A DNA stretch of 64,000 bases from positions 890,116-954,115 of the forward strand of contig CAWHDT010000005.1 of assembly GCA_963828195.1 (NCBI GenBank), in the 5' to 3' direction. Shown here in pieces: positions 32,575 to 60,995 of this stretch. This stretch comes from Candidatus Bathyarchaeota archaeon. Lineage in GTDB: Archaea; Thermoproteota; Bathyarchaeia; Bathyarchaeales; Bathycorpusculaceae. How positions within the stretch are numbered: position 1 is the stretch's first letter; the number at the start of each line of letters is the position of its first letter. The notes under the pieces are model-generated. The model searched no databases. It was given only the letters and a program-made list of their open reading frames with translations, and had not been told where the DNA came from. A program made the translations under genes and the position numbers.

Positions 32575-32880
32575 TTGAAATCAATGAAAACGCTTGACGA
32601 AATAAAAGCCGAGATAGAAACTTTGAAGCCGACACTGAAGAAGCGCTTTAAAGTGGAAACCATAGATATTTTTGGTTCATACGCTAGAAAACAAGCCGAC
32701 GAAAAAAGTGACATTGACCTATTAATAACATATTCAACTATTGATTATGATTACTTTACAATTCTGGGGTTAAGAAATTATTTAAGACGAAAACTGCACA
32801 TGAAAGTTGATGTTGTTTCCAAAGAATTCCTAAACAAGCACATAAGGGACGAGGTACTCAAGGAAGCCATTCCAGTATGA
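32575..32880 (+). CDS. Minimal nucleotidyltransferase (MNT) antitoxin
   Basis: IFGSYAR....SDIDL (GSX10DXD). Confidence 0.88.
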   Translation: MKSMKTLDEIKAEIETLKPTLKKRFKVETIDIFGSYARKQADEKSDIDLLITYSTIDYDYFTILGLRNYLRRKLHMKVDVVSKEFLNKHIRDEVLKEAIPV

Positions 32881-47377: not shown

Positions 47378-47406
47378 TTATGAACAAGTATTAACTAGCT
47401 TTATAT
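47378..47406 (+). promoter_or_regulatory. Island box 1 plus TATA
   Basis: TTATGAA-CAA-GTATTAA at 47378; TTTATAT at 47400. Confidence 0.7.
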
Positions 47407-47450
47407 TTATCTGAACACTCCAATTGGTAAAATCAAAATCGGTGTTATTA

Positions 47451-47561
47451 TTGAAGAAAACTCGAAAAACCAGCCGGAACATTGAAGAACAGATTATTGT
47501 CGATGCTCAAGGAAAACCACACAGCATCTTTCAAAAAAGAATTTTTAAGAAAAAGCAATAA
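47451..47561 (+). CDS. 36-aa basic microprotein (MKKTRKTSRNIEEQIIVDAQGKPHSIFQKRIFKKKQ)
   Basis: TTG start after TCGGTGTTA, downstream of box 1 promoter. Confidence 0.45.
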   Translation: MKKTRKTSRNIEEQIIVDAQGKPHSIFQKRIFKKKQ

Positions 47562-47763
47562 ATACTTAAACGAACGAATTTTAAAATAGGCAGTTTTCTC
47601 TTCTTTATTTTGTTCCAAGCCGTTTCTTGTTACTGATTGTTGGTTTTTTCTCCGATTTCACCCATTTTTCCAAAAAAATTGTGTAATTTATTCGTTTTTT
47701 TTAAAATATTTGGGTGCTTTGATAAGGTTAAATGGAGTTTCTTAAAAAAAAAGGAAAAAGGGA

Positions 47764-49368
47764 TTAAGTTTTTTTCCAGAACTTGATTGTTCTGGATTTG
47801 GTGGTTTTGGTCGCGGTTGTGTCATCTTCGTCTTTGCCTGGGAATGGGAACAAGCCAGAGGGCTTAGATTTTGAGTTAACGCGGAAGTAGATTAAGCCTA
47901 TTGCCAACCATATTGCGGTGCCTGCGATGGCAAAGATACCTTCTGATGATGAAGCTCCTCCGCCGGCAAAGCTAAGATACACAATAGTAGCCATCATGAC
48001 GGCGTTAGCAGCGAAGCCTGCGATTGGAACTACCTTGCGTTTCAGTATGTTGCTGCGTTCTTTAGTGAATGCGATCAGTGCCACGATGTTTGTTATTCCA
48101 TACAGTAGGAAAGTACCGAAGTTTGATAGCAACGTAATTGACGTCAGGTTCGTTATTGTCAGTACTCCGAAAGACCCTATAGCAGCCGCAACCGCTGTCA
48201 TCACCCAAATTCCGATTGCTGGAGTGGCGTATTTTGGGTTCAGCTTGCTGAGTTGATAAGGCACTTCAGTGTCTCGGCTGATCGCGTAGGTTACTCTAAC
48301 GCCGGTGTTCATGCATGCAAGTGTAGTGCCTAATATTGCAGCGGCCACAATCGCCGCTATTATTAACTCCAGTGTGAATCCGTTGCCGCCGAGAAATACG
48401 TTTCCGAGGTTGCGAACCATATCGCCGATGGGGGCGCTTGAGACTGCGGCAGCGCTAAATCCTCTGTATACTTGGCCATTTTGCGTTATGGTGTAGCTGC
48501 TGTTCATCCATGCTTCAGCGCCGAAGTATTCAAACAGATAAGCAAAGGCCCCTTGGATAATCAATGACAGAATGATTGCTTTTGGAACAACTTTTGGGTC
48601 TTTGGCTTCTGCGGTGTATGCTGTTGCGGATTCGAATCCGACTAGTACTAAGATAGCGATGGTCGCTTGAAATAGCACAGTGCTAATGTCATGAGGTGTA
48701 ACTATTCCGCCAAGACTAGAGAACGTGAAGGATACATGCTGTGGATTTGTAAAACGGAAAACTAATGCCATGCTAGTTATGACGACCAGCATTCCGATTT
48801 GAACTACGTTAAGGAGAACGTTCGTTTTTGTTGATCCTTGAATTCCGCGGTAAGCAATGGCGCCTGTGACAACTGCAAATAAGCAGGCTATTGCGATTTC
48901 GCCTAAGGGTGAGATGCTGAAGCCAAGTACCGATAAAATCCATGTTAGCAAGATGGACATTGCTGCAACCATGACTCCTGGATAGACCCAGTAGTAGAGG
49001 TGAGATATCCAGCCGACCCCGAACTTTGCGTTTCTCGCTGAAGTGTTGCTGGCTCCGTTGTCTAGTAAGGCTCTTTGAGCAAAGTAATATGAACTGCCGG
49101 GACCCGCATCGGGGTAACGCCGCGCTAACCATGAATAAGATGCGGCAGTTAGGAACGCCAAAATTAATGCTAGTGTGAGGCCAAAAAATATGTCGTTGGC
49201 GGTTGAAGCGCCAGACGGGGAGGTCTGTGCGGCGTTTATCTGGAAAGTGAGCCATAAGAATGCTCCTGGAGCTATTAAGGCCATGGCGTTTATCGTTATA
49301 CCGCCTAGGCTGAGAGTTTTTTTCAATTGGGTCTTTTGCGTCTGTGTGCCTGTTGAGTCAGTAGAGAT
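47764..49368 (-). CDS. APC-superfamily (amino acid/cation) permease
   Basis: About 12 TMs; YPDAGPGSSYYF, VGFESATAYTAEAKDP, RVTYAISRD, KYATP; start is either TTG 49326 or ATC 49368. Confidence 0.9.
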   Translation of the reverse strand: MSTDSTGTQTQKTQLKKTLSLGGITINAMALIAPGAFLWLTFQINAAQTSPSGASTANDIFFGLTLALILAFLTAASYSWLARRYPDAGPGSSYYFAQRALLDNGASNTSARNAKFGVGWISHLYYWVYPGVMVAAMSILLTWILSVLGFSISPLGEIAIACLFAVVTGAIAYRGIQGSTKTNVLLNVVQIGMLVVITSMALVFRFTNPQHVSFTFSSLGGIVTPHDISTVLFQATIAILVLVGFESATAYTAEAKDPKVVPKAIILSLIIQGAFAYLFEYFGAEAWMNSSYTITQNGQVYRGFSAAAVSSAPIGDMVRNLGNVFLGGNGFTLELIIAAIVAAAILGTTLACMNTGVRVTYAISRDTEVPYQLSKLNPKYATPAIGIWVMTAVAAAIGSFGVLTITNLTSITLLSNFGTFLLYGITNIVALIAFTKERSNILKRKVVPIAGFAANAVMMATIVYLSFAGGGASSSEGIFAIAGTAIWLAIGLIYFRVNSKSKPSGLFPFPGKDEDDTTATKTTKSRTIKFWKKT

Positions 49369-49495
49369 CTATTTTCCCTCCTCGGAGCGTCAAGCTGAAA
49401 ATATCGGAAAGTAGCGATTTGCCTTTTTTAACGAGCAGCGTGTCGTGCTTTCTGCTTGATTTTTTTACATTTGGAGATTCCATTCTCTTTTTCAT
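49358..49495 (-). CDS. 45-aa basic microprotein/leader ORF upstream of the APC permease
   Basis: MKKRMESPNVKKSSRKHDTLLVKKGKSLLSDIFSLTLRGGKIDLY; TCGGTGTTA upstream as for the 47451 ORF. Confidence 0.45.
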   Translation of the reverse strand: MKKRMESPNVKKSSRKHDTLLVKKGKSLLSDIFSLTLRGGKIDLY

Positions 49496-49538
49496 CTAGT
49501 AACACCGAACTATTGGTACATAAAGCAAGTTTAGGGAA

Positions 49539-49577
49539 ATATAAACCTAATTAAGATTTGTTCATAATAATTATGAT
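49539..49577 (-). promoter_or_regulatory. Island box 2 plus TATA (APC operon)
   Basis: Minus strand ATCATAA-TTA-TTATGAA-CAA-ATCTTAA (box starts 49567); TTTATAT starts 49545. Confidence 0.75.
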
Positions 49578-49863
49578 TGACTGTAAGTATTTCCATAAAA
49601 ACAATAAATTTATGCACAAAAGCCCATTAATTGACTTATTCATTGCGCAAAAAGAAAAAATTGAATGCAGGGAGATAACTTGTTTTGAGGCGGCTCAATC
49701 AATTTCTTTAAAAAAGAATATCAACAGATCTCGGATTCCACAATTTTTTCTTACTAACTTTAAGCGCCGTACAGCAATTTCGGTGCCATAAATGACTTTG
49801 TGAGGAAATTTGAAGAGGCAGCTTAATTTTAAAAACTTAGAAAATGTTGCTGAGCGAATAAAC

Positions 49864-49971
49864 TCAGGAGGGTAGTTTGCCATTTTTTATTTCTGAGCGA
49901 AGTCTGTAGCCGATTGTTGCTATTGAACCGAATATAACACATGTCCAGACTAAATCTAATAATCCCAACAT
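49864..49971 (-). CDS. 35-aa single-TM microprotein, KdpF-like size (MLGLLDLVWTCVIFGSIATIGYRLRSEIKNGKLPS)
   Basis: Hand-translated; paralogous to the 56327 ORF; under box 3 promoter. Confidence 0.65.
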   Translation of the reverse strand: MLGLLDLVWTCVIFGSIATIGYRLRSEIKNGKLPS

Positions 49972-50023
49972 TCTTCCACTCACTTGTCATTATATTGAAC
50001 AATTTTTGTTGGAGCATCAGCCT

Positions 50024-50062
50024 ATATAAATGTAATTGTGAAGTGTTCATAACTTTTATGAA
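50024..50062 (-). promoter_or_regulatory. Island box 3 plus TATA
   Basis: Minus strand TTCATAA-AAG-TTATGAA-CAC-TTCACAA (box starts 50052); TTTATAT starts 50030. Confidence 0.75.
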
Positions 50063-50340
50063 AAACAAGAATACTGTGCAATCAATTTTAAAAGAATTAG
50101 ACGTTTGGCTTGGAAATTTTAGTTTAGTTGGGCATTGGACTACGCCCGTCGTATGATAGAAAGCAGAAACCCTTTAAGGTTCTTTTCTTGAGAGAGAAGT
50201 CAACCGTTTCTTTTTGGCAAGAAATCTGTAATTCAGAATAATATCTTTTCAACATGTTTTCTTGGCTCCACGGTTATGAAGCATTCATGTTTTCAATTAT
50301 ACACCGTTTTCATGTAAATTGGTTCAATTTTTCTGAGAAA

Positions 50341-50369
50341 TTATGTGCAAATCACAAATAGCTTTATTA
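50341..50369 (+). promoter_or_regulatory. Island box 4 plus TATA (probable lrp-kdpABC promoter)
   Basis: TTATGTG-CAA-ATCACAA at 50341; TTTATTA at 50363. Confidence 0.7.
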
Positions 50370-50420
50370 GGTAAAGACGTTATGAGTTAGAAAGTTAAGG
50401 AGAAGAATAAATTGCAGAGC

Positions 50421-50529
50421 TTTACGACCCTGTTTCAGATGAGAACTGGATCAGCGGCTTTCGCTTTTCTAAATCGAAGCTTTTCGATTGAGAAGCGGGC
50501 AAAAGTTGAAGGGATTTCACAGTCGTAAA
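50421..50529 (+). ncRNA. Candidate structured 5' leader of the kdp operon (overlaps a 38-codon TTG ORF 50412-50528)
   Basis: TTTACGAC/GTCGTAAA closing stem enclosing CTGTTTCAG/CTGGATCAG and CGCTTTTC-AATCGAA/TTCGATT-GAGAAGCG hairpins. Confidence 0.4.
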
Positions 50530-50560
50530 AACGCGCGATTAGCGAATTATGGTGATTTAT

Positions 50561-50659
50561 ATGAAAAATATGTGCACTGAATGTTCGTTGCGAAATGCTC
50601 TTGGAGATAGCATTGATTCAACAGTAGAGATCATTTCCCTTGCGGAAAGGATAGTTTAA
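50561..50659 (+). CDS. 32-aa ORF (MKNMCTECSLRNALGDSIDSTVEIISLAERIV)
   Basis: GGTGA RBS; stop ends 2 nt before the Lrp-domain ATG. Confidence 0.45.
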   Translation: MKNMCTECSLRNALGDSIDSTVEIISLAERIV

Positions 50660-50661
50660 TT

Positions 50662-50952
50662 ATGAATCGGTTGTTGGCATCTGTTAACATATTCGTGGAG
50701 CCGTCCCAAAAAGATTATGTGTTGACAGCTCTCGCCGAACTCAAAAACATCGAAGAAGTCTACGATGTGGCGGGAGAGTACGACATAGTTTCTTTAGTTT
50801 CTGCCTCTTGCGTTGAAGAGTTCAGGGATGTGCTACATAAGAAGATAATGAAGATTAAAGGCATAAAGAGCACTATTGTAACTATAATTTTGCAGCCTCA
50901 CAAAGGGCCAAGATGTTTAGCCGTAAAAGCTAATACTTCAGTTGCAAAATAG
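50662..50952 (+). CDS. Stand-alone Lrp/AsnC ligand-binding (RAM) domain protein
   Basis: EVYDVAGEYDIV...IKGIKST; no HTH. Confidence 0.88.
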   Translation: MNRLLASVNIFVEPSQKDYVLTALAELKNIEEVYDVAGEYDIVSLVSASCVEEFRDVLHKKIMKIKGIKSTIVTIILQPHKGPRCLAVKANTSVAK

Positions 50953-51011
50953 ATAAAAGGAGCGGAAAGGAGCCATAGTGAATAAAAATGTTTTCTGGAG
51001 TTTCGGATTGA

Positions 51012-52670
51012 TTGATAAATGCAGTTCAAGCGCTGGCAGTCGTTCTAATTATCGGTGCAGCATTAGTTTTAGCGAAGCTTATAGCGCCATACCTAGTCGC
51101 AGTTTATAATCGGAAACCAAGCCGTTTAGACAAAATATTTAATCCAATTGAAAACTTCATTTACAAAATCATCGGCGTAGACACAGAGCAGACAATGGGT
51201 TGGAAGCAGTACTTCCTAGCAGCCCTATATGTGAACATTGCTATGATCATCATCGCCTTTCTAATCATGGTCTTCCAAGGCAGCTTACCCCTTAACCCCA
51301 TGCATTTCCCCGACATACACCCAGACCTTGCCTTCATGCAAGCAGTCTCCTTCGCAACAAACACAGACCTTCAACATTATAGCGGCGAAGCCACATTCTC
51401 TTATCTTAGCCAAATAAGCGTCCTCCAATGGCTTCAATTTGCCTCCCCAATCACGGGAATATGCGTAGGCATCGCATTTATCCGAGGATTAATCCCCACT
51501 TCAAAAGACATGGGTAACTTCTATGTTGACTTTACCAGATCTATTACAAGAATTTTCTTGCCCCTAGCCTTTGTAGCTTCAATCGTCCTTCTCGCTTTGG
51601 GTGTGCCTCAAACTCTCAGCGGCTACACTACATTGACGACTATCCAGGGAGCTTCACAAACAATTCTATCTGGACCTGTTGCTTCCCTAGACGGCATAAT
51701 GCAATTGGGCACAAACGGCGGCGGCTTTTACGGTGCAAACGCTGCGTACCCCTTCATGAACCCATCCCAATTCACGGACGTCATCATGATACTGCTAATG
51801 CTTCTGCTTCCTCTAGCTTTGCTCTTTGTTTTCGGCGAAATGATAGGCAAAAAACGCGAATCGATACCGCTTATTGGGGGCACTTTGATTCTTGGCGGAG
51901 CTTGTCTAGCTTTAGCGTTTTCTCCATCGCTTCCCGCGGTTGGTCCGGGAATTGAAACTCGGTTCGGCGGTTTCTCTTCCACTTTGTGGACTGTAATAAC
52001 AACCATGTGCACAACTGGCTCTGTTAACGCTTCTCTTTCAGGTATTCATCCTCTGGGGATAACTTCTGGTTTCTTGGGGATGTTCATTCAGTCGATTCCA
52101 GGCGGGAAAGGAGTTGGAATGATGTACATGGTAATGTTCGTTTTAATTACCGTCTTCGTTGTTGGGTTGATGTCTGGAAGAACCCCTGAATACCTAAGCG
52201 TCAAAATCACTGGCCGCGACGTAATGCTCGTCATGGTGGCTTTCCTACTCCACCCCATTACCACACTAATTCCAACAGTGACGGCGTATGCTTCGGGCGC
52301 AGCGGCATCCATTGGCGTCAACGGAAGCTCTACAGGTTTCACACAAATCCTTTGGGAATTCACGTCCGCAGCGGCAAACAACGGATCTGACTTCCTGGGC
52401 GCCCAAGCAAATACCCCATTCTTCAACATAGCTTGCGCCATCGTCATTTTGGTAGGACGTTATGGTCCAATTCTAATCTTGCTTGCACTCTCAGGCTCCA
52501 TGATCGGGCGAAAACGAACTGGCACCACCACAGGACTCAAAACCGACACATTGCTGTTCACCGTGGTTCTAGTTGTCAGCATAATCATACTTGTAGTGTT
52601 ATCCTTCTTCCCGTTCTTGGCGATTGGACCAATTTCATCATTCTTCGGAGGGTTAAAGAATGGCTTCTGA
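51012..52670 (+). CDS. kdpA: K+-transporting ATPase subunit A
   Basis: SFATNTDLQHYSGE, MGNFYVD, LGTNGGGF, GLMSGRTPEYL, SAAANNGS. Confidence 0.96.
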   Translation: MINAVQALAVVLIIGAALVLAKLIAPYLVAVYNRKPSRLDKIFNPIENFIYKIIGVDTEQTMGWKQYFLAALYVNIAMIIIAFLIMVFQGSLPLNPMHFPDIHPDLAFMQAVSFATNTDLQHYSGEATFSYLSQISVLQWLQFASPITGICVGIAFIRGLIPTSKDMGNFYVDFTRSITRIFLPLAFVASIVLLALGVPQTLSGYTTLTTIQGASQTILSGPVASLDGIMQLGTNGGGFYGANAAYPFMNPSQFTDVIMILLMLLLPLALLFVFGEMIGKKRESIPLIGGTLILGGACLALAFSPSLPAVGPGIETRFGGFSSTLWTVITTMCTTGSVNASLSGIHPLGITSGFLGMFIQSIPGGKGVGMMYMVMFVLITVFVVGLMSGRTPEYLSVKITGRDVMLVMVAFLLHPITTLIPTVTAYASGAAASIGVNGSSTGFTQILWEFTSAAANNGSDFLGAQANTPFFNIACAIVILVGRYGPILILLALSGSMIGRKRTGTTTGLKTDTLLFTVVLVVSIIILVVLSFFPFLAIGPISSFFGGLKNGF

Positions 52671-54840
52671 TGATGCGAAAACTTCGGTGCCCGTAAAAAG
52701 TGGCGAATCAGCCTCTGGAGGAATGGTGCTCTCTAAAAAAGTGCTGATTGACTCGTTAATCCGTTTAAGCCCTAAATCACTGCGCAAAAACGTAGTGATG
52801 CTGATAGTTGAAATCACCTTCTTCATTGTGGCAGCAATGGCTATCGTTCCACAGGCTTTCGGGTCAGTAGCCAGCGTCAACCTACGAGGCTTCTATATTG
52901 CGGTCGCCGCAATTCTCCTTCTAACAGTTTGGTTCAGCACACTCTCCGATGCCCTTGCTGAGCAACAGGCAAAAAGCACAGCCGGCGCCCTGCGAAAACT
53001 GGAAACTGAAGTGCCGGCCAAAAAAATTATAACAGAAGAATGGACGAGAAAGATAGTCGATGTGAAATCGACTGAACTGCGAAAAGACGATCTTATCCTG
53101 ATTGAAAAAGGAGACGTTGTTCCCCTAGACGCTGACATACTGGAAGGAATTGCCATGGTTGACGAGTCACTTGTGACGGGCGAATCCGCTCCGGTTCGGA
53201 AGGCACCCGGAGACTCACTTATCGGAGGCTCACGACTAGTCAGCGATACCTTGACCGCAAAGGTCACGACGAATCCTGGCGAAACCTTCATTGATCAAAT
53301 GATAAAGATGGTTGAATCCTCCAAGAGACCAAAGACGCCCAACGAAGTTGCAATAACCATCGTGCTGATTGGATTAACCGCCATCTTCACCATCATAATA
53401 CTTACCTTGCTAGGCGTGTCAGTGGCGCTGGGTTTGGGCGCTGACCTCTCCGTGCTAATCGCACTTTACGTTTGCCTCCTCCCAACAACCATCGGCGCTT
53501 TGCTTCCAGCTATTGGACTTTCAGGAATGTCCAGACTCTACAAGAGTAAAATAATTGCAAAGTCCGGCAAAGCTATAGAAACCGCTGGCGACGCAGATGT
53601 CGTTCTCCTCGACAAAACAGGCACCATCACTGTGGGAAACAGGCAAGCAATTAAGTTCGTACCTATGGAGGGATTCACCGATGAAGAAGTGGGAGAAGCA
53701 GCTTTTCTTTCGTCATGGCATGATGATACTCCCGAAGGACGCAGCATACTCAAACTCGCATACGAGAAAGGTTTCCTACCAAAAGAACTGAACTCTCTCG
53801 CACTTTCAGAAACTTACCCGTTCTCAGCCAGCACCCGCACAAGCGGAGTAAAAATAACCAACGTAGGCTTAACGCTTCCAAAAGGCGATAAATCAGGACG
53901 GGACCGACTGAGAATCAGAAGAAAATCCTCAACAATAACCGATCAAAGCGTTGCAGCAACTATTGAGCCTGAAATTGAAATCTTCAAAGGTGCTCCAGAA
54001 TCGCTTAAAAAAATTGTAGATTATATTCCTCCAAACTATGACCTTATCGTGGACGGGATATCTGCGGAGGGCGAAACACCTATAGCTGTAGCAAAAAACC
54101 GCCAAATCATCGGAATAATCAGGCTGAAAGACGTACTAAAAGAAGGCATAAAAGAAAAAATTGCGGCGCTTAAAGTAATGGGGATACGCCCCGTTATGAT
54201 AACTGGGGACCAACCGCTCACTGCAAAAAATATCGCGACCGAGGTTGGAATCGACGAATATGTAGCGCAGGCCAAACCCGAGGACAAGTACAACATCGCC
54301 AAGAAGGAGCAAGCTGAAGGCAGAATCGTCGCAATGATCGGCGATGGAAGCAATGATGCCCCAGCCCTTGCAGCCGCCGACGTGGGTCTCGCCATGAACT
54401 CAGGCACAGAAGCTGCTAAAGAGGCAGCGAACATGGTTGACTTAGAATCGAACCCAGCAAAAATAATTGATGTTGTCATGCTTGGAAAACAGTTGCTTAT
54501 GACTCGAGGCGCCGTTACTGCTTTTAGCATAGCCAACGACGTATCCAAGTACTTCGCAATCATGCCTTTTATCATGGCAACAGCCATTCCATCGCTAAAC
54601 GCTCTGAACATCCTACATTTATACAACCTGCAAAGCGCCGTCCTGTCAGCTCTCATATTCAACGCTATCGTCATTCCGCTTTTAATTCCGCTTGCCATGC
54701 GAGGAATCGCTTTCAAACCCACAAGCACCATGAAGCTTTTCCTCAAAAACACTTTAATCTACGGTGTGGGCGGCGTTATTGTGCCATTTGTCGGAATTAA
54801 ATTGATAGATCTATTCCTTGGAGGAGTACTTCACTTTTAG
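52660..54840 (+). CDS. kdpB: K+-transporting P-type ATPase subunit B
   Basis: TGESAPV, CLLPTTIG, DKTGT, MITGD, GDGSNDAPAL, TAFSIANDVSKYF. Confidence 0.97.
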   Translation: MASDDAKTSVPVKSGESASGGMVLSKKVLIDSLIRLSPKSLRKNVVMLIVEITFFIVAAMAIVPQAFGSVASVNLRGFYIAVAAILLLTVWFSTLSDALAEQQAKSTAGALRKLETEVPAKKIITEEWTRKIVDVKSTELRKDDLILIEKGDVVPLDADILEGIAMVDESLVTGESAPVRKAPGDSLIGGSRLVSDTLTAKVTTNPGETFIDQMIKMVESSKRPKTPNEVAITIVLIGLTAIFTIIILTLLGVSVALGLGADLSVLIALYVCLLPTTIGALLPAIGLSGMSRLYKSKIIAKSGKAIETAGDADVVLLDKTGTITVGNRQAIKFVPMEGFTDEEVGEAAFLSSWHDDTPEGRSILKLAYEKGFLPKELNSLALSETYPFSASTRTSGVKITNVGLTLPKGDKSGRDRLRIRRKSSTITDQSVAATIEPEIEIFKGAPESLKKIVDYIPPNYDLIVDGISAEGETPIAVAKNRQIIGIIRLKDVLKEGIKEKIAALKVMGIRPVMITGDQPLTAKNIATEVGIDEYVAQAKPEDKYNIAKKEQAEGRIVAMIGDGSNDAPALAAADVGLAMNSGTEAAKEAANMVDLESNPAKIIDVVMLGKQLLMTRGAVTAFSIANDVSKYFAIMPFIMATAIPSLNALNILHLYNLQSAVLSALIFNAIVIPLLIPLAMRGIAFKPTSTMKLFLKNTLIYGVGGVIVPFVGIKLIDLFLGGVLHF

Positions 54841-54852
54841 GAAGCAAAGAAC

Positions 54853-55323
54853 ATGACAAATAAACAAAAACGAAAATGGAAACTGAAGAGTCTGAGACCG
54901 ATTATAGGTTTAACAGTGGTTTCGCTGTTGATTTGCGGAATACTTTTCCCACTTGTAATCACAGGCATAGGCCAAGCTCTCTTTCCCTATCAAGCGAACG
55001 GCGAACTTGTTCAGCTTAACGGGCAAAATGTAGGATCTGCTCTTATAGCTCAAAACTTCACTTCGCCCATGTTCTTCGAAGAAAGAAACGAGTCACAGTC
55101 AGCGTCAGGCGTAGACCCCGACATCACTCTCCAGCAAGCTTACTCGCAAATACCAGGAATAAGCAGTGCAACCGGAATTTCTGTCGGGTCCTTAACAAAT
55201 ATAGTGAATCAGAATCAGCAGGGAACGCTTTGGATCTTTGGCAGCCCATATGTTGACCCGCTGCAGCTTAATCTGCTGCTGATAAAAGATTACCCTTCAG
55301 TTTACAGTAACTTCACAGGGTAA
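54853..55323 (+). CDS. kdpC: K+-transporting ATPase subunit C (short form)
   Basis: LFPYQANG, GSALIAQNF, SASGVDPDIT. Confidence 0.92.
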   Translation: MTNKQKRKWKLKSLRPIIGLTVVSLLICGILFPLVITGIGQALFPYQANGELVQLNGQNVGSALIAQNFTSPMFFEERNESQSASGVDPDITLQQAYSQIPGISSATGISVGSLTNIVNQNQQGTLWIFGSPYVDPLQLNLLLIKDYPSVYSNFTG

Positions 55324-55503
55324 TATTCAGCCTTGGCAAACCCCAAGATTTGCTATGAGCTAAAACAAGCGATAGCCTTTTTAACATATGTCCAATTTTT
55401 CTACATATAGATCGTCTGTTTGTAACGTAAATGATGGAAGAACTATCTGCATGTAAGATAAAGTATAAATATTGGAAACTGATGTTCAATTGCAACGACC
55501 CAT

Positions 55504-55797
55504 ATGCCAAAGCTACTAGCATTCGTAGATATATTTGTTGAATCTCCAGAAATGGATCAAGTATTAGCCTCGCTTGCCCAATTGGAACACCTCGAAGAAC
55601 TATACGAAGTCACCGGCGAATTTGACATCGTAACCCTGGTATCAGCCGCCGACATAGAGGAATTTAGAGATATTCTCAAAAACAGGATAATGAAAATAAA
55701 AGGTGTAAAAAGCACTGTAAGCTCAATCGTCCTGAAAGCGCACAAAGGACCAAAATGCACCGAAGATAACGCCCCCGCAGCATCTTCATCCGTTTAA
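55504..55797 (+). CDS. Stand-alone Lrp/AsnC RAM domain protein
   Basis: LYEVTGEFDIV...IKGVKST..HKGPKC; paralog of 50662. Confidence 0.88.
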   Translation: MPKLLAFVDIFVESPEMDQVLASLAQLEHLEELYEVTGEFDIVTLVSAADIEEFRDILKNRIMKIKGVKSTVSSIVLKAHKGPKCTEDNAPAASSSV

Positions 55798-55901
55798 GAA
55801 AAACAGCGCTCTTTTGGATTCAGCACAGCATTTTCTTTTAAGTTGATTCTTTTTTAAAAATTAGAAAAAAAGATTTGGAAAAATTGGCTTTCTGTCTAAA
55901 G

Positions 55902-56144
55902 TTACATTGGTGACAGGACGATGGATGTCTCGGTACGGATTACACTGGGGTCTTTTTCGATTATTTTGTAAACAACTTGGTTTATGTCTTCGAGCGCTGG
56001 AGCTTCTAAAACGATTATTGCGTCATATCGACCGAAGATGGCGTCGGCGGAAACGATGCAGGTCCCTGTGACTTTTTCTTTTATTTTCTTAACGACGTCT
56101 AGTGATGTGCCTGGTTTGGTGCTTAAGAGTATGTATGCTTTCAA
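55902..56144 (-). CDS. Stand-alone Lrp/AsnC RAM domain protein (divergent subtype)
   Basis: KAYILLSTKPG...IFGRYDAII...VIRTETSIV. Confidence 0.85.
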   Translation of the reverse strand: MKAYILLSTKPGTSLDVVKKIKEKVTGTCIVSADAIFGRYDAIIVLEAPALEDINQVVYKIIEKDPSVIRTETSIVLSPM

Positions 56145-56244
56145 TTTTTTTTACCTCTTTTTTCCCTTTTTTCGTTTTACATTAACAGTATTAACGTATT
56201 ACCACATATAAATTTTCTGCTAATTTTAGACGTATGTCGAGTCT

Positions 56245-56283
56245 TTATGAAATATTATGAACAAATCACAACTGCATTTATAT
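56245..56283 (+). promoter_or_regulatory. Island box 5 plus TATA
   Basis: TTATGAA-ATA-TTATGAA-CAA-ATCACAA (box starts 56255); TTTATAT at 56277. Confidence 0.75.
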
Positions 56284-56326
56284 TTAGCCGAGCAAGTAAC
56301 TAATTATAAAATAAAATGGTGAAAAT

Positions 56327-56425
56327 ATGTTTGGAATAATCGATTTAGCTTCAATAGCCACAATCATCGGTTCATTTGCCTTTATCGCATACAGCATCAA
56401 ACTAGAACTCAAAATCAAGGCCTAA
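56327..56425 (+). CDS. 32-aa single-TM microprotein (MFGIIDLASIATIIGSFAFIAYSIKLELKIKA)
   Basis: GGTGA RBS; paralog of 49864-49971. Confidence 0.65.
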   Translation: MFGIIDLASIATIIGSFAFIAYSIKLELKIKA

Positions 56426-56771
56426 CAAACGAAAACTCCATTGCACCCTCAAAGCCCACACAAATCATCAACTCGAAGACCCAGAAACGCACTCCCTAGG
56501 TTTTCAGTCTTACAAAAGCTAATCGCCCCCTTTTTTTAGCCATAAATTTATTCTATGATACCCATGCCCCCCAGAAACTTTGCAAAAACTAAATGTGGGC
56601 ATCAGCACATATTTTTTAATAAAACAATAAAAACGGTCCAAATGACTGCGCTGACTCGCTAAATAGCTAATTTAGCGTTTGCGACTTATTTGAGAAATCT
56701 TTTAATCTTTGACCGCAATTATTCATCTTAGCGGATTACATCCGAAGAATTTAACCTTAAAGGTGATTTTC

Positions 56772-57662
56772 ATGAAAACAGCATATAAATTAGCTATACT
56801 TTTTGTTGGCTCGCTAATGTTCTTAGCAGCTTTTAGCTCAGCGTTTGCTCTTCCTGGTTCTATGACTATGCCGGCAATGGTTCAATTGAGCTATAGTAAC
56901 AGCAATTGGTACAGTTCAAACTGGAGTGGATACGCAGTAAATGCTTCGGCTGGCTCGGTGACCTCTGCTAGCGGATCATGGATTGTTCCCACAGTAAGTG
57001 GAGGCACGGGTACCGCATACGCTGCGTTCTGGACAGGTATTGACGGCTTTAGCTCAAGCACAGTTGAACAAATAGGCACTATAGCGCAAAGTAGCAGTAG
57101 CTTCAGCTTTAGAGGATCAAAAACAACCGTAGCTTACTACGCTTGGTACGAGTTCTACCCTCTCGAGTCAATTCAAACAATAACCACAGCAACCACACCA
57201 ACAGGAACTCCGGCCACAGTAATGCCCGGCGACATAATCTCTGCAGCGGTGACTTACGTATCTGGCACCACATTTACCCTGACTATTAATGACAAGACTC
57301 GAGGATGGACCTTTACCACGATGGGAAGCCAACCAGGCGCAACTGAGTCTTCAGCAGAGTGGATTGCGGAGGCACCCTCGTCAAATATGGGAGTATTGCC
57401 ACTGGCAAACTTTGGTCACGTTAACTTTGGAAAAGACTACACGTCTACTGCAATGACTTGCTTTGCTACGGTCAACAGTGTTTCCGGCGGCATTGGTTCC
57501 TTTTTACATGGAAGTTCTGTTGCAAGCTCTACTGAAGTTCAATCGTTAACAATGGCCACTGAGATGGGCTTCGGCAGAAACGTCATCATTGTTCCTGAAG
57601 CTACGCCATCAGCACTATCATCAGACGGAACTAGCTTTTCAATTACGTGGGACAGAGCTTAA
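56772..57662 (+). CDS. Secreted glutamic peptidase, family G1 (eqolisin)
   Basis: Signal peptide; SSNWSGY, WTGIDG, VEQIGT (catalytic Q), YAWYE, SAEWIAEAP (catalytic E). Confidence 0.9.
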   Translation: MKTAYKLAILFVGSLMFLAAFSSAFALPGSMTMPAMVQLSYSNSNWYSSNWSGYAVNASAGSVTSASGSWIVPTVSGGTGTAYAAFWTGIDGFSSSTVEQIGTIAQSSSSFSFRGSKTTVAYYAWYEFYPLESIQTITTATTPTGTPATVMPGDIISAAVTYVSGTTFTLTINDKTRGWTFTTMGSQPGATESSAEWIAEAPSSNMGVLPLANFGHVNFGKDYTSTAMTCFATVNSVSGGIGSFLHGSSVASSTEVQSLTMATEMGFGRNVIIVPEATPSALSSDGTSFSITWDRA

Positions 57663-57839
57663 GGCTAATCGCTAAGAATTAGCGAGCTAACCCCTTCTTT
57701 TTTTGCAAGCATTGATCGAATCTTCATTCATTATTCAAAATCTTCTTTTTTGACAATTGTCCTTTTAATCTCTAATTATCGAGTAATTATTTTAGCTTTT
57801 TAATTTTTTACTAAACAATGATTAAGTAAAATTAATAAG

Positions 57840-57868
57840 TTATGAACAATTCATAACCACACTTAAAT
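57840..57868 (+). promoter_or_regulatory. Island box 6 (perfect palindrome) plus TATA
   Basis: TTATGAA-CAA-TTCATAA at 57840; CTTAAAT at 57862. Confidence 0.75.
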
Positions 57869-57944
57869 TATCGGCAGACCTCAATCTTTACTGAGGAACA
57901 TACATGTGCTCCTTTAAACTTCGGAAAATGGGTCGCGCATTAAG

Positions 57945-58238
57945 TTGAACCAATTCTTAGCCTCCGTGAATATTTTCGTTGACCAATCTCAGAAAAACAA
58001 CGTACTAAACGAGCTCTCAAAGCTTCAAAATGCCAAAGAAGTCTACGAGGTAGCAGGAGAATACGATATAGTTTCGCTTATCTCCGCGCCTACCCTTGAG
58101 GAGTTTCGAGATGTCTTGCAGAAACGGGTTATGAAAATTAAGGGAGTAAAAAGCACCATAACCACCGTGATCCTTTGTCGTCATGAAGAGATTATTGTTA
58201 AGGAAGCGAAAAACGATGCCGGTCGCCGCTTGACCTAA
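57945..58238 (+). CDS. Stand-alone Lrp/AsnC RAM domain protein
   Basis: EVYEVAGEYDIVSL...EEFRDVL...IKGVKST; paralog of 50662 and 55504. Confidence 0.88.
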   Translation: MNQFLASVNIFVDQSQKNNVLNELSKLQNAKEVYEVAGEYDIVSLISAPTLEEFRDVLQKRVMKIKGVKSTITTVILCRHEEIIVKEAKNDAGRRLT

Positions 58239-58253
58239 TAGGGAAGGAAAAGC

Positions 58254-58412
58254 ATGCATAAATGTCCAAAGTGCGGCACTGAAATGGAGTCAAAGGGTGA
58301 AATTGAGGAGTCAGGCCAGCCTCAAAGTACTTTTTTCCAGTGCCCCAAATGTAAAAACATTGAGCTAAAAGCAAAGCACTTCAACAATTGGTTCCGTCTA
58401 GACTACCCTTAA
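58254..58412 (+). CDS. 52-aa CPxCG-type zinc-ribbon protein
   Basis: MHKCPKCGTEM...FFQCPKCKNIE; hand-translated. Confidence 0.7.
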   Translation: MHKCPKCGTEMESKGEIEESGQPQSTFFQCPKCKNIELKAKHFNNWFRLDYP

Positions 58413-59558: not shown

Positions 59559-60995
59559 TTAGGTAACCTCCTTGCGGATAAGCTCTTTAAGTTGCTCAGC
59601 AAGTAATGATAGCTGATGATTCTGGGTCTGGTCTGATGCTTCGGTTATGTTTCCTCTAAACATTGCGTCTTTGGTAAGTATTTCTTCTGGGTTTCCGCCC
59701 CATGAGCGTATGATCTCCTTTAGCTGGTCAATGCGGTTTACTTCGGTTTTTGATCTTATTGCTATCCCAGAGGTTGAGTAGAGATTTCTTAGAGTCTCGA
59801 TTCCTAAGCTTTGGACATCGGTGTATGTGTCGATAGTGTGTCCCATCATGTATTCAACTAATTCGGGGTCAATCTTTGCGATGCTCATTTGGCTTCGGAA
59901 GAATTTGCGTAGGCTATGAACTCTTACGCTATACATCCAGCTGTTAGGTAGTTTCTGTGCGATTTTTTCGCCGACTACAAGTTCGTGTATTATGTCTCGT
60001 ACGGCTTTTTCGGTAACGCCTAAGACCTTGTCTGCTATGCGGCTGTTACGGATAAGTGGGGATTCGTCTGTTAGCTGCTCGGGCGGGAAATACCTGTTGC
60101 CTCGTTTTCTTTCTCCGATGTAGCTTTTTAGTAGGCTGCAAGCTTCAGCGCCAAGGAACGTATCGTAGTCGTGGTATTTGCCCTTGGTTATTTCTGCTTC
60201 GACATGAACATGGATAGGTATGCGATTTGCTTCTAAGTCCTCGCGCACGTGACGGTATTTGAGTTTTACAAAGGTTCCTATACGGAATCCGCCTGTAGCT
60301 ATGGCTGCGATGATGAAGGCTTCTCGGGTGGCGGAATTATCAAGCATTGTGGCTATTTCTTGGGGTTTTGGCGCTCTGTCTTTGTAGGTTACTTTGCGTT
60401 TTAATGGTTCGTCGAGTTCAACTTTTTTGACGCCATTTGCTCGGTAAAAGGTTTTTACTGCTTTAATGCGGTTGCATACAGCATTGGGTGCTAGACCTGC
60501 ATCTTGAACTTCTGCTAGATAATCGAGTAGAAAGCCGCAGTGAACTTGAACGCGTTGCGGGTCAGGTATGGCACCAGCGGGTTTAACGTCAGCTATTATT
60601 GTGTCGGGGCTGTGTCCTAGCCACTCAGCGTATTTTTTTAATTTTGTTGAGTACATAAGGCAGCTAGCTTTTGAGGCTGAACAGTGGCGCAGAAAATGTC
60701 TTGCCATTTTTTGCATGCTTTCATATTCGAAAATATAGGGAATTATGCCTGGTTGATGCTCGATACAGCTGCGTACGATGTAGTCGACGAGTCCTTTCTC
60801 TTGGGCGGCTAAGATTTTTTCGAGTTTTATAGTTACTGGTTTTCGTAGACGGTAGCCGTTTAAGCTTTTTTCGATGGCAACGGTGTCGCCTTGGATTATC
60901 AGCGGTAGGTTGAGGCTTTTTAGTTCTTCAACAGAAAGTTTATGGTTTCGGGTTATAGGAGAGGTTACGGTAGCTTTCGCTATAGATATGGTCAA
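59559..60995 (-). CDS. int: Tyrosine recombinase/integrase (intact, not split)
   Basis: GGFRIG (R), ITKGK (K), HSLRKFF (HxxR), MMGH, DTY (Y). Confidence 0.92.
   Translation of the reverse strand: MTISIAKATVTSPITRNHKLSVEELKSLNLPLIIQGDTVAIEKSLNGYRLRKPVTIKLEKILAAQEKGLVDYIVRSCIEHQPGIIPYIFEYESMQKMARHFLRHCSASKASCLMYSTKLKKYAEWLGHSPDTIIADVKPAGAIPDPQRVQVHCGFLLDYLAEVQDAGLAPNAVCNRIKAVKTFYRANGVKKVELDEPLKRKVTYKDRAPKPQEIATMLDNSATREAFIIAAIATGGFRIGTFVKLKYRHVREDLEANRIPIHVHVEAEITKGKYHDYDTFLGAEACSLLKSYIGERKRGNRYFPPEQLTDESPLIRNSRIADKVLGVTEKAVRDIIHELVVGEKIAQKLPNSWMYSVRVHSLRKFFRSQMSIAKIDPELVEYMMGHTIDTYTDVQSLGIETLRNLYSTSGIAIRSKTEVNRIDQLKEIIRSWGGNPEEILTKDAMFRGNITEASDQTQNHQLSLLAEQLKELIRKEVT

Follow-up and report, generated by a model that had tools for sequence, protein, structure and literature searches.

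We analysed a 64,000-nt stretch of the genome of a Candidatus Bathyarchaeota archaeon (GenBank assembly GCA_963828195.1, contig CAWHDT010000005.1, positions 890,116 to 954,115; in our numbering G000:C5:890116-954115), hereafter the window, which belongs to a 2.83-Mb genome of 44% GC (G000; 9 contigs, 96% complete). Six copies of a 17-bp near-palindromic box lie between window positions 47,378 and 58,412, and past the start of each a TATA-like heptamer begins at exactly 22 nt. The box is a genuine position-locked cis element, which abuts the transcription factor B (TFB) recognition element (BRE) and the TATA box. We consider it fairly probable that it serves as the operator of a ribbon-helix-helix (RHH) one-component factor of ~185 aa with a V4R/H-NOX/Bet3-type C-terminal domain, which would govern mainly a nitrogen regulon. 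A preliminary description of the window had proposed a potassium regulon under an Lrp-family activator; that reading is probably to be replaced by a nitrogen-centred regulon that includes cation uptake and is run by a new RHH-sensor regulator.

All six boxes of the preliminary description were recovered at their coordinates and on their strands, with the spacing exact, the heptamer being TTTATAT at four of them and TTTATTA and CTTAAAT at one each. Its pattern, allowed up to 2 mismatches on both strands, matches the window 14 times, compared to a mean of 2.62 in 100 shuffles, none of which reached 14 or more, and an independent repeat search of the window grouped three of the six sites as one family. 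Also in line with that description, no seventh site in the window carries a TATA box at +22, weaker pattern matches at 32745, 50274 and 51754 having none there. Thus, the six sites are real, but the box is not a feature of this locus alone, with 13 more sites found elsewhere in the genome.

Altogether, 19 box-TATA composites were collected from the genome (Table 1). The same pattern, at up to 2 mismatches, has 168 matches genome-wide (167 in a pre-filtered recount). YTTWWAW stands at offset 22 in 17 of the 167, whereas each other offset from 17 to 45 has 0 to 3, and none of 110 pattern matches in the reversed genome has it at offset 22. In the alignment of the 19 sites, conservation spans -12 to +29 and comprises an upstream half-site of the TTTCATAA or TTTATGAA type at -11 to -4, the box TTATGAACAAATCWCAA and the TATA box, with the half-sites 10-11 bp apart; the 5-nt spacer between box and TATA is weakly conserved, and information content is approximately zero directly past TATA. 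The extra upstream half-site, first remarked at individual window sites, is therefore real, its positions being conserved over the 19 genome sites. In 85 other candidate promoters of the genome, there is no conservation in the 22 nt before TATA; these promoters show only a slight A preference at -4/-3, and a weak BRE was dropped as an argument for activation. A position weight matrix built from the 19 sites, whose scores for these training sites are circular, is informative only in the gap to the next matches (18.3 and 14.7 bits) and in the empty reversed-genome control. Throughout the 19 genome sites and all pattern matches in relatives, TATA begins at box position 23. The composite, a putative operator of high information content, can be used to predict co-responding genes in these uncultured archaea.

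The 29-nt composite pattern, at up to 2 mismatches, matches 20 of the remaining 24 genomes in the genus and none of 16 drawn from other families of the order, while the backward-pattern control gave 2 matches in the same sample of 24 + 16 genomes. A wider draw of 301 genomes of the order yielded 238 matches in 65 genomes versus 3 matches of the backward-pattern control, and nearly all box-bearing genomes fall within family f1, where they represent at least 9 genera.

The genes preceded by boxes outside the window include a type I glutamine synthetase followed by an Asn-synthase-domain gene, with asnB nearby, cobyric acid synthase (cobQ), a second APC permease with the same leader as the permease of the window, and a second 32-aa microprotein that itself lies ahead of a 926-aa P-type ATPase. 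Further boxes precede an 81-codon open reading frame (ORF) overlapping the start of a full-length Lrp (Lrp159), a second full-length Lrp followed by an RHH protein (the nif side of contig C7), and nifH-nifB-nifD-nifK followed by a homocitrate-synthase-like gene (C7:178959-184647), a cluster in which no nifEN was seen. NifH and NifD score 433.3 and 570.4 bits against NCBIfam cut-offs of 394.35 and 486.05, respectively, with NifB and NifK just under theirs.

A survey of targets in relatives covered 3.5 kb around each of 75 matches, in which the first two ORFs with a length of 60 aa or more and a start up to 2.2 kb downstream (135 in all) were scanned against Pfam. The first annotated gene was Amt at 6 sites, an APC permease at 6, AsnB at 3, GlnA at 2 and NifH with a NifB-like gene at 1; at other sites it was a CitMHS-type transporter (6 sites, then TrkH where seen), RAM and KdpA at 4, a P-type ATPase at 1 and a Zn-ribbon protein with peptidase S51 at 1. 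The pair of RAM gene and kdpA recurs behind a box in G002, G003, G013 and G023, and the most widely conserved target is the 32-aa microprotein family (11 of the 75 sites, plus 2 variants). Judging by these annotations, nitrogen acquisition and assimilation is the main recognisable target theme and cation transport the second. The potassium regulon proposed earlier stands insofar as kdp and cation transporters are included, but its scope was too narrow, for glnA, asnB, nifHBDK, amt, amt-glnK, cobQ, thiL and APC permeases are included as well.

The lead to a candidate regulator was a 165-aa protein between the nif-side Lrp and nifH that resembled RHH proteins. A search with it found an orthologue group of ~185 aa, which in G000 is encoded outside the window at C7:325509-326072, the protein beside nifH (C7:185031-185525) being a divergent paralogue. 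The group is present in 19 of the 24 genus genomes and missing from all three box-less and two box-bearing ones (G005 and G022); outside the genus, it was found only in G035 in the 41-genome sample. Tallied by hand over the same 301 genomes (gene in 73, box in 65), the RHH gene and the box occur together in 58 genomes, the box alone in 7, the gene alone in 15 and neither in 221, a table that overstates independence since the genomes are related. Within the genus, the gene is present in 37 of 39 box-bearing versus 4 of 18 box-less genomes, and in other genera of the family in 20 of 25 versus 4 of 66.

The two are also frequent neighbours. Of 30 loci in the genus, 14 have a co-directional box ~60-450 nt past the RHH stop codon, ahead of a small single-transmembrane (TM) protein, and one further locus has a divergent box. 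Of 20 loci from other genera and families, 11 have a box behind the RHH gene, again with 5 nt between box and TATA (9 by pattern, 2 by eye), and the genes that come next encode Amt (G042, G083), a microprotein and an APC permease (G157, G184) or, in seven genomes (G078, G160, G168, G175, G190, G226 and G261), a 256-aa KaiC/GvpD-type ATPase. In G035, which belongs to family f12, the order is RHH gene, box, amt and glnK (P-II).

The G000 and G035 orthologues match Pfam RHH_1 with 25.9 and 36.7 bits, respectively, above the cut-off of 20.5, whereas the nif-adjacent paralogue remains below it (17.4 bits). The RHH segment is nearly invariant in an alignment of 21 sequences, matching the invariant box. 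Family f11 has NPKRVTVALD in the RHH strand where the others have NPTRITVAFD, together with A at box position 8 in place of the otherwise near-invariant C, which hints at co-variation of protein and site. Among solved structures, CopG matches best in sequence, with an E value of 0.006 over 41 residues only, and no NikR family match was obtained in Pfam or NCBIfam; the nearest Atlas cluster is an RHH_1 family listed as 'hypothetical protein' or CopG-domain protein, with recorded members mostly from Candidatus Bathyarchaeota. The homodimer model scored 0.82 versus 0.00 for the best of 3 controls, although RHH dimers have already been solved and the score may reflect likeness to known structures; runs agreed on at least 97% of contacts, and the pLDDT (predicted local distance difference test) of the partner was 89. 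Among proteins of solved structure, 20 of 30 one-chain pairs and 1 of 23 single chains attain this dimer mark. The predicted interface includes residues 3-13 and 15-48.

The monomer model has a mean pLDDT of 70 and is confident for residues ~73-180 only. Its C-terminal domain, which has no Pfam match, aligns structurally with H-NOX (Z 8.8; root-mean-square deviation [rmsd] 3.5, 99 residues), YslB (Z 8.2) and Bet3 (Z 8.0), as well as with the phenol-sensor domains of DmpR (Z 7.2) and PoxR (Z 7.1) and the V4R protein MJ1460 (Z 5.7), over 99-121 residues at rmsd 3.5-4.4. In the model, these matches form a coherent set of small-molecule sensor folds with borderline scores, those with Z <8 possibly marking a common arrangement.

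We propose that RHH dimers would occupy up to three 7-bp half-sites, 10-11 bp apart (-10, +1, +11). The promoter-proximal dimer would end 5 bp before TATA, in reach of TFB and the TATA-binding protein (TBP), and its contact with them would explain the invariant spacing. In G000, the factor would control ~20 promoters, its regulon comprising amt, glnA, asnB, nifHBDK and APC permeases; kdpABC, TrkH and the P-type ATPase; stand-alone RAM proteins; and microprotein families. The C-terminal domain would sense nitrogen status, which, given the target genes, is the most likely signal, K+ or another one being a less likely alternative. We rate activation as somewhat more likely than repression, as the geometry fits archaeal activators contacting TBP, according to excerpts of PMC2995911. 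The BRE-adjacent activator geometry invoked in the preliminary description thus stands, with a fixed site abutting BRE and TATA as described for archaeal activators, but Lrp is not the best-fitting binder. In a bolder extension, which we consider improbable as a whole, the RHH-V4R sensor replaces NrpR/PII as the master nitrogen regulator of Bathy-6-type Bathyarchaeia and some sister families and couples the uptake of NH4+ and K+: Kdp, TrkH and the P-type ATPase would be switched on with amt, glnA, asnB and nitrogenase, the pumps either scavenging NH4+ too or balancing glutamate. Within this extension, the RAM protein co-transcribed with kdp would act as a PII-like amino-acid-sensing brake, and the 32-aa single-TM proteins would be P-type ATPase subunits.

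Several observations weigh against an RHH-controlled, nitrogen-centred regulon, in addition to the relatedness of the genomes and the borderline fold matches. The 7 box-bearing genomes without the RHH gene include G005 and G022, which are 92% and 95% complete and lack it by profile search as well; the 15 genomes with the gene alone have no strict box match; and the G000 orthologue has no adjoining box. The RHH gene could be merely a frequent neighbour or target of boxes. Most characterised RHH proteins are repressors, and a site so near the BRE could act by excluding TFB, i.e., in repression. With regard to the targets, the sole amt found in G000 has no box, and the box-linked GlnA of this genome is an accessory paralogue. 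The nitrogen theme is also diluted by cobQ, kdp and P-type ATPase targets and by an AIRS-domain protein (ThiL by NCBIfam), the first gene at 4 of the 75 relatives' sites, ~21 of which lead only to small or unannotated ORFs.

The closest competitor of the RHH factor, which we nevertheless consider unlikely, is a full-length Lrp/AsnC protein (feast/famine regulatory protein) binding the box as a dimer or octamer and tuned by RAM-only subunits. The AT-rich centre of the palindrome, the additional site upstream of it and the distance of only a few bp to the BRE correspond to the description of Ptr2, LysM and Ss-LrpB in excerpts of PMC2995911, and Sa-Lrp of Sulfolobus responds to glutamine and binds the control regions of glnA, gltB and gdhA, as excerpts of PMC3584215 report. 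The RAM-domain repertoire of G000 is unusually large, with 29 matches, of which ~12 are stand-alone (77-111 codons), several double-domain proteins of 330-365 aa and 12 single-domain full-length Lrp-type genes, two of which (Lrp159 and the nif-side Lrp) lie behind boxes. A quick tree of Lrp159 homologues from 41 genomes resolved well-supported clades, and no clade fits the distribution of the box. Clade A, the housekeeping one, occurs in almost every genome, box-less ones included, and is the only clade in five box-bearing genomes (G001, G004, G010, G022 and G024). Clades B, C and D are confined to 9, 7 and 2 of the 25 genus genomes, respectively, B and C never together, and differ in their recognition helices while the box is identical. 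Clade B genes lie directly upstream of an amt box in 6 genomes, a placement that favours Lrp, but are absent from 16 of 25 genus genomes; the role of clade B may be that of a local co-regulator. In 5 of the 6 loci inspected, clade C shows synteny with PhoU-PHO4, not with boxes; Lrp159 (clade D), tried as the general factor, was found in G000 and G016 only; and a Cys-tailed Lrp (C3:298131) is absent from the box-rich G013, G016 and G020 and present in box-less families. A full-length Lrp as the activator is thus not borne out, and the distribution of the RHH protein fits that of the box far better.

A potassium or acid-stress regulon with incidental nitrogen genes has, in our estimate, a small chance of being correct. 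It draws on kdpABC as the main target in the window, on the boxes ahead of kdp (4), CitMHS with TrkH (6) and a P-type ATPase in relatives, and on KdpD (PF02702), which has 0 matches in G000 (96% complete), whereas the control search matched 6 of 14 named genomes; this absence upholds the KdpDE independence originally suggested for kdp. Nevertheless, Amt, Amt with P-II, GlnA, AsnB, NifHBDK and APC permeases make up a larger and more widespread share of the targets, nitrogen-type genes adjoin the RHH gene in other genera and families, and the box sets of many genomes include no cation transporters. The absolutely fixed spacing to TATA and the overlap of the box with the expected place of the BRE would also suit an extension of the core promoter that a specialised TFB or TBP paralogue recognises much as a sigma factor would. 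We regard this as very unlikely, as the near-palindromic 17 bp and the third half-site in helical phase point to a binder that is dimeric or oligomeric, and the 85 other candidate promoters show nothing conserved upstream of TATA. Finally, a promoter cassette copied by duplication or a mobile element, and not selected as an operator, is hardly credible. Sites 2 and 5 do have near-identical twins with the same downstream genes (C5:357400 and C5:361359), and a phage-integrase-family gene flanks the window cluster, but the conserved stretch ends abruptly at -12 and +29, outside which the sites differ in their flanks and downstream genes, the same box and spacing precede unrelated genes in 65 genomes of at least 10 genera, and no tRNA or long repeat borders the cluster.

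Table 1. Box-TATA composites and associated features (window positions unless a contig or locus is named)
Feature	Position	Strand	Remark
Site 1: degenerate box TTATGAACAAGTATTAA, 5-nt spacer, TATA TTTATAT	47378..47406	+	45-codon ORF next
Leader-like ORF, 45 codons, TTG start	47424..47561	+	homologue ahead of APC permease in relative G013
APC-family amino-acid permease, 520 aa	47764..49326	-	near-identical paralogue behind another box, C5:357400
Leader ORF ahead of permease, 45 aa	49358..49495	-	conserved in G016
Site 2: box TTATGAACAAATCTTAA, spacer, TATA	49539..49567	-	promoter of leader ORF and APC permease unit
Single-TM microprotein MLGLLDLVW..., 35 aa	49864..49971	-	variant of 32-aa family; orthologue behind box in G016
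Site 3: box TTATGAACACTTCACAA, spacer, TATA	50024..50052	-	upstream half-site TTCATAA at 50056-50062
Site 4: box TTATGTGCAAATCACAA, spacer, TATA TTTATTA	50341..50369	+	promoter of RAM-kdpABC unit
Stand-alone RAM (AsnC_trans_reg) protein, 96 aa	50662..50952	+	directly ahead of kdpA
kdpA 51012-52670, kdpB 52660-54840, kdpC 54853-55323	51012..55323	+	
Second stand-alone RAM protein, 97 aa	55504..55797	+	59% identical to first; without own box
Third stand-alone RAM protein, 80 aa, divergent sequence	55902..56144	-	oriented away from site 5; without box
Site 5: consensus box TTATGAACAAATCACAA, spacer, TATA	56255..56283	+	upstream half-site TTATGAA at 56245-56251
Single-TM microprotein MFGIIDLASIATIIGSFAFIAYSIKLELKIKA, 32 aa	56327..56425	+	start 72 nt past box start
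Site 6: perfect palindrome TTATGAACAATTCATAA, spacer, TATA-like CTTAAAT	57840..57868	+	RAM and Zn-ribbon genes next
Fourth stand-alone RAM protein, 97 aa	57945..58238	+	
Zn-ribbon protein, 52 aa	58254..58412	+	homologues in 5/41 genomes, one behind box in G023
Composites of the genome by location	6 window; 9 at C5:351-366 kb; 1 C5:875022; 3 C7:184.8-186.3 kb; 1 C8:130615		
KaiC/GvpD-type ATPase loci	L236, L237, L239, L242, L244, L246, L249		other genera and family f11

The gene identities given in the preliminary description were confirmed for KdpA/B/C, the APC permease, the Zn-ribbon protein and the four HTH (helix-turn-helix)-less AsnC_trans_reg proteins. The latter, 80-97 aa in length, score 32.7-62.3 bits against a cut-off of 25, and the solved chains nearest to them are the stand-alone RAM structures 2djw, 2zbc and 2cvi. 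By their position behind boxes, RAM-only proteins are targets of the box, and they and the microproteins are real members of the regulon, as had been proposed. The Zn-ribbon protein was rejected as a DNA-binding partner of the RAM proteins, given the few genomes with homologues. A peptidase A4 (scytalidoglutamic-type) family protein with a signal-like N-terminus is encoded between sites 5 and 6 (56709-57662, +) without a box of its own, and the phage-integrase-family gene (478 aa; 59562-60995, -) lies just past the cluster. An integrated element was considered for the window cluster and rejected, as the window was found to contain no tRNA gene and the cluster to be bordered by no long direct repeats. 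A second box-rich cluster, partly paralogous to that of the window and including another divergent RAM-only gene, occupies C5:351000-366500, which suggests a recent segmental duplication.

The single-TM microproteins under boxes fall into at least 4 families (MFGIIDLASIA..., ...YYNxKYRKF..., ...FGVGSLxxAFAxYT... and ...LTAFKxISxCTxFAxDR... types), encoded in the window (56327-56425 and 49864-49971), at C5:361189-361287, C5:875172-875333 and C5:350818-351003, and in many relatives; as one family precedes a P-type ATPase, the microproteins may be pump subunits. At 7 of the 75 relatives' sites, a box subtype, TTRTGAACATTTCTCAA, lies ahead of a 176-197-aa protein without known family. Sites of this subtype in G000 (C8:130615-131750, C5:352789 and C5:355261) and in relatives (L023, L037, L065, L070, L079, L086 and L087) share a conserved leader (...AGAGCAAAACAAAA...GGGATG) and a small peptide (MxDLA...PFxFxG). 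The protein, which 23 of 24 genus genomes encode in one copy, which was not detected in other genera and which belongs to no Pfam or NCBIfam family, was rejected as the regulator (176 aa; C8:131223), as its carriers include the box-less G006 and G017 and it is itself a target with the box subtype. In six genomes (L032, L036, L039, L043, L048 and L074), a cluster runs in the order clade-B Lrp, box, amt, box, CitMHS-type transporter, an unannotated ~100-aa protein and TrkH (TrkH seen in L036). The nif-side full-length Lrp (C7:185548-186012) occupies a 154-codon frame in which every ATG, GTG or TTG comes after the conserved N-terminus IDKLDIQILNML...; the cause may be a frameshift, an assembly error or a non-canonical start.

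For the abundant, uncultured Bathyarchaeia, the present results supply a putative operator, a regulon of ~20 promoters including nifHBDK and a concrete candidate regulator. If correct, the RHH-sensor regulon would add a third mode of archaeal nitrogen control to NrpR/PII and Lrp, would tie the uptake of nitrogen to that of potassium transcriptionally, and would offer a clean model of a bacterial-type RHH protein communicating with TBP/TFB at a fixed geometry. Our literature searches found no description of this operator, of an archaeal RHH nitrogen regulator or of transcription regulation in Bathyarchaeia. Nitrogenase has been reported from Bathy-6 Bathyarchaeia, with the nifHBDK order found here (PMC11697101), and nifHBDK without nifEN, B12 synthesis genes and PQQ-domain proteins match the genomes of that study, whose main text makes no mention of transcription, Lrp or kdp.

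Archaeal activators, as excerpts of PMC2995911 describe, have a dimer site that precedes BRE/TATA by a few bp and is highly constrained in its position, as well as auxiliary upstream sites. The composite resembles the sites of Ptr2, LysM and Ss-LrpB treated there in its dimer-type site near the BRE, its fixed position and its auxiliary site one turn upstream; unlike in these systems, the box is accompanied by an RHH protein and not an Lrp, the size of the regulon is much greater, and the operator has a much higher information content than the natural Lrp sites, called 'quite degenerated' in the same excerpts. Sa-Lrp of Sulfolobus acidocaldarius (excerpts of PMC3584215) and haloarchaeal Lrp exemplify nitrogen and amino-acid control in archaea without classical bacterial systems, and in Haloferax lrp adjoins glnA (PMC8229911). 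No position-locked operator is reported for Sa-Lrp or haloarchaeal Lrp in these excerpts, and the Lrp clades examined here do not follow the box. KdpD/KdpE systems share the target kdpABC, whereas here KdpD was not found, the operator is common with nitrogen genes and a RAM protein is predicted to be co-transcribed.

In methanogens, NrpR and PII (GlnK) control a nitrogen regulon that covers nif, glnA and amt, from NrpR operators downstream of TATA. By contrast, the box lies upstream of TATA, and the 96%-complete G000 has 0 matches to the NrpR domain family (PF01995) and to P-II (PF00543), the latter being found in 2 of 41 sampled genomes of the order. The 256-aa ATPase found in seven genomes also matches the GvpD P-loop family, recalling GvpE/GvpD of haloarchaeal gas vesicles, an analogy that leans on the role of GvpD in that pair; G000 has no orthologue of this ATPase (best tblastn E value 0.035). 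The arrangement suggests that the RHH protein and the KaiC/GvpD-type ATPase may form a pair of regulator and ATPase modulator. The RHH protein itself compares with NikR and other sensor RHH regulators (CopG/Arc/MetJ), with which it shares an N-terminal RHH_1 domain, a predicted symmetric dimer and a putative ligand-type C-terminal domain. The nickel domain at the C-terminus of NikR is ACT-like, whereas that of the bathyarchaeal protein is predicted to resemble V4R/H-NOX/Bet3-type folds.

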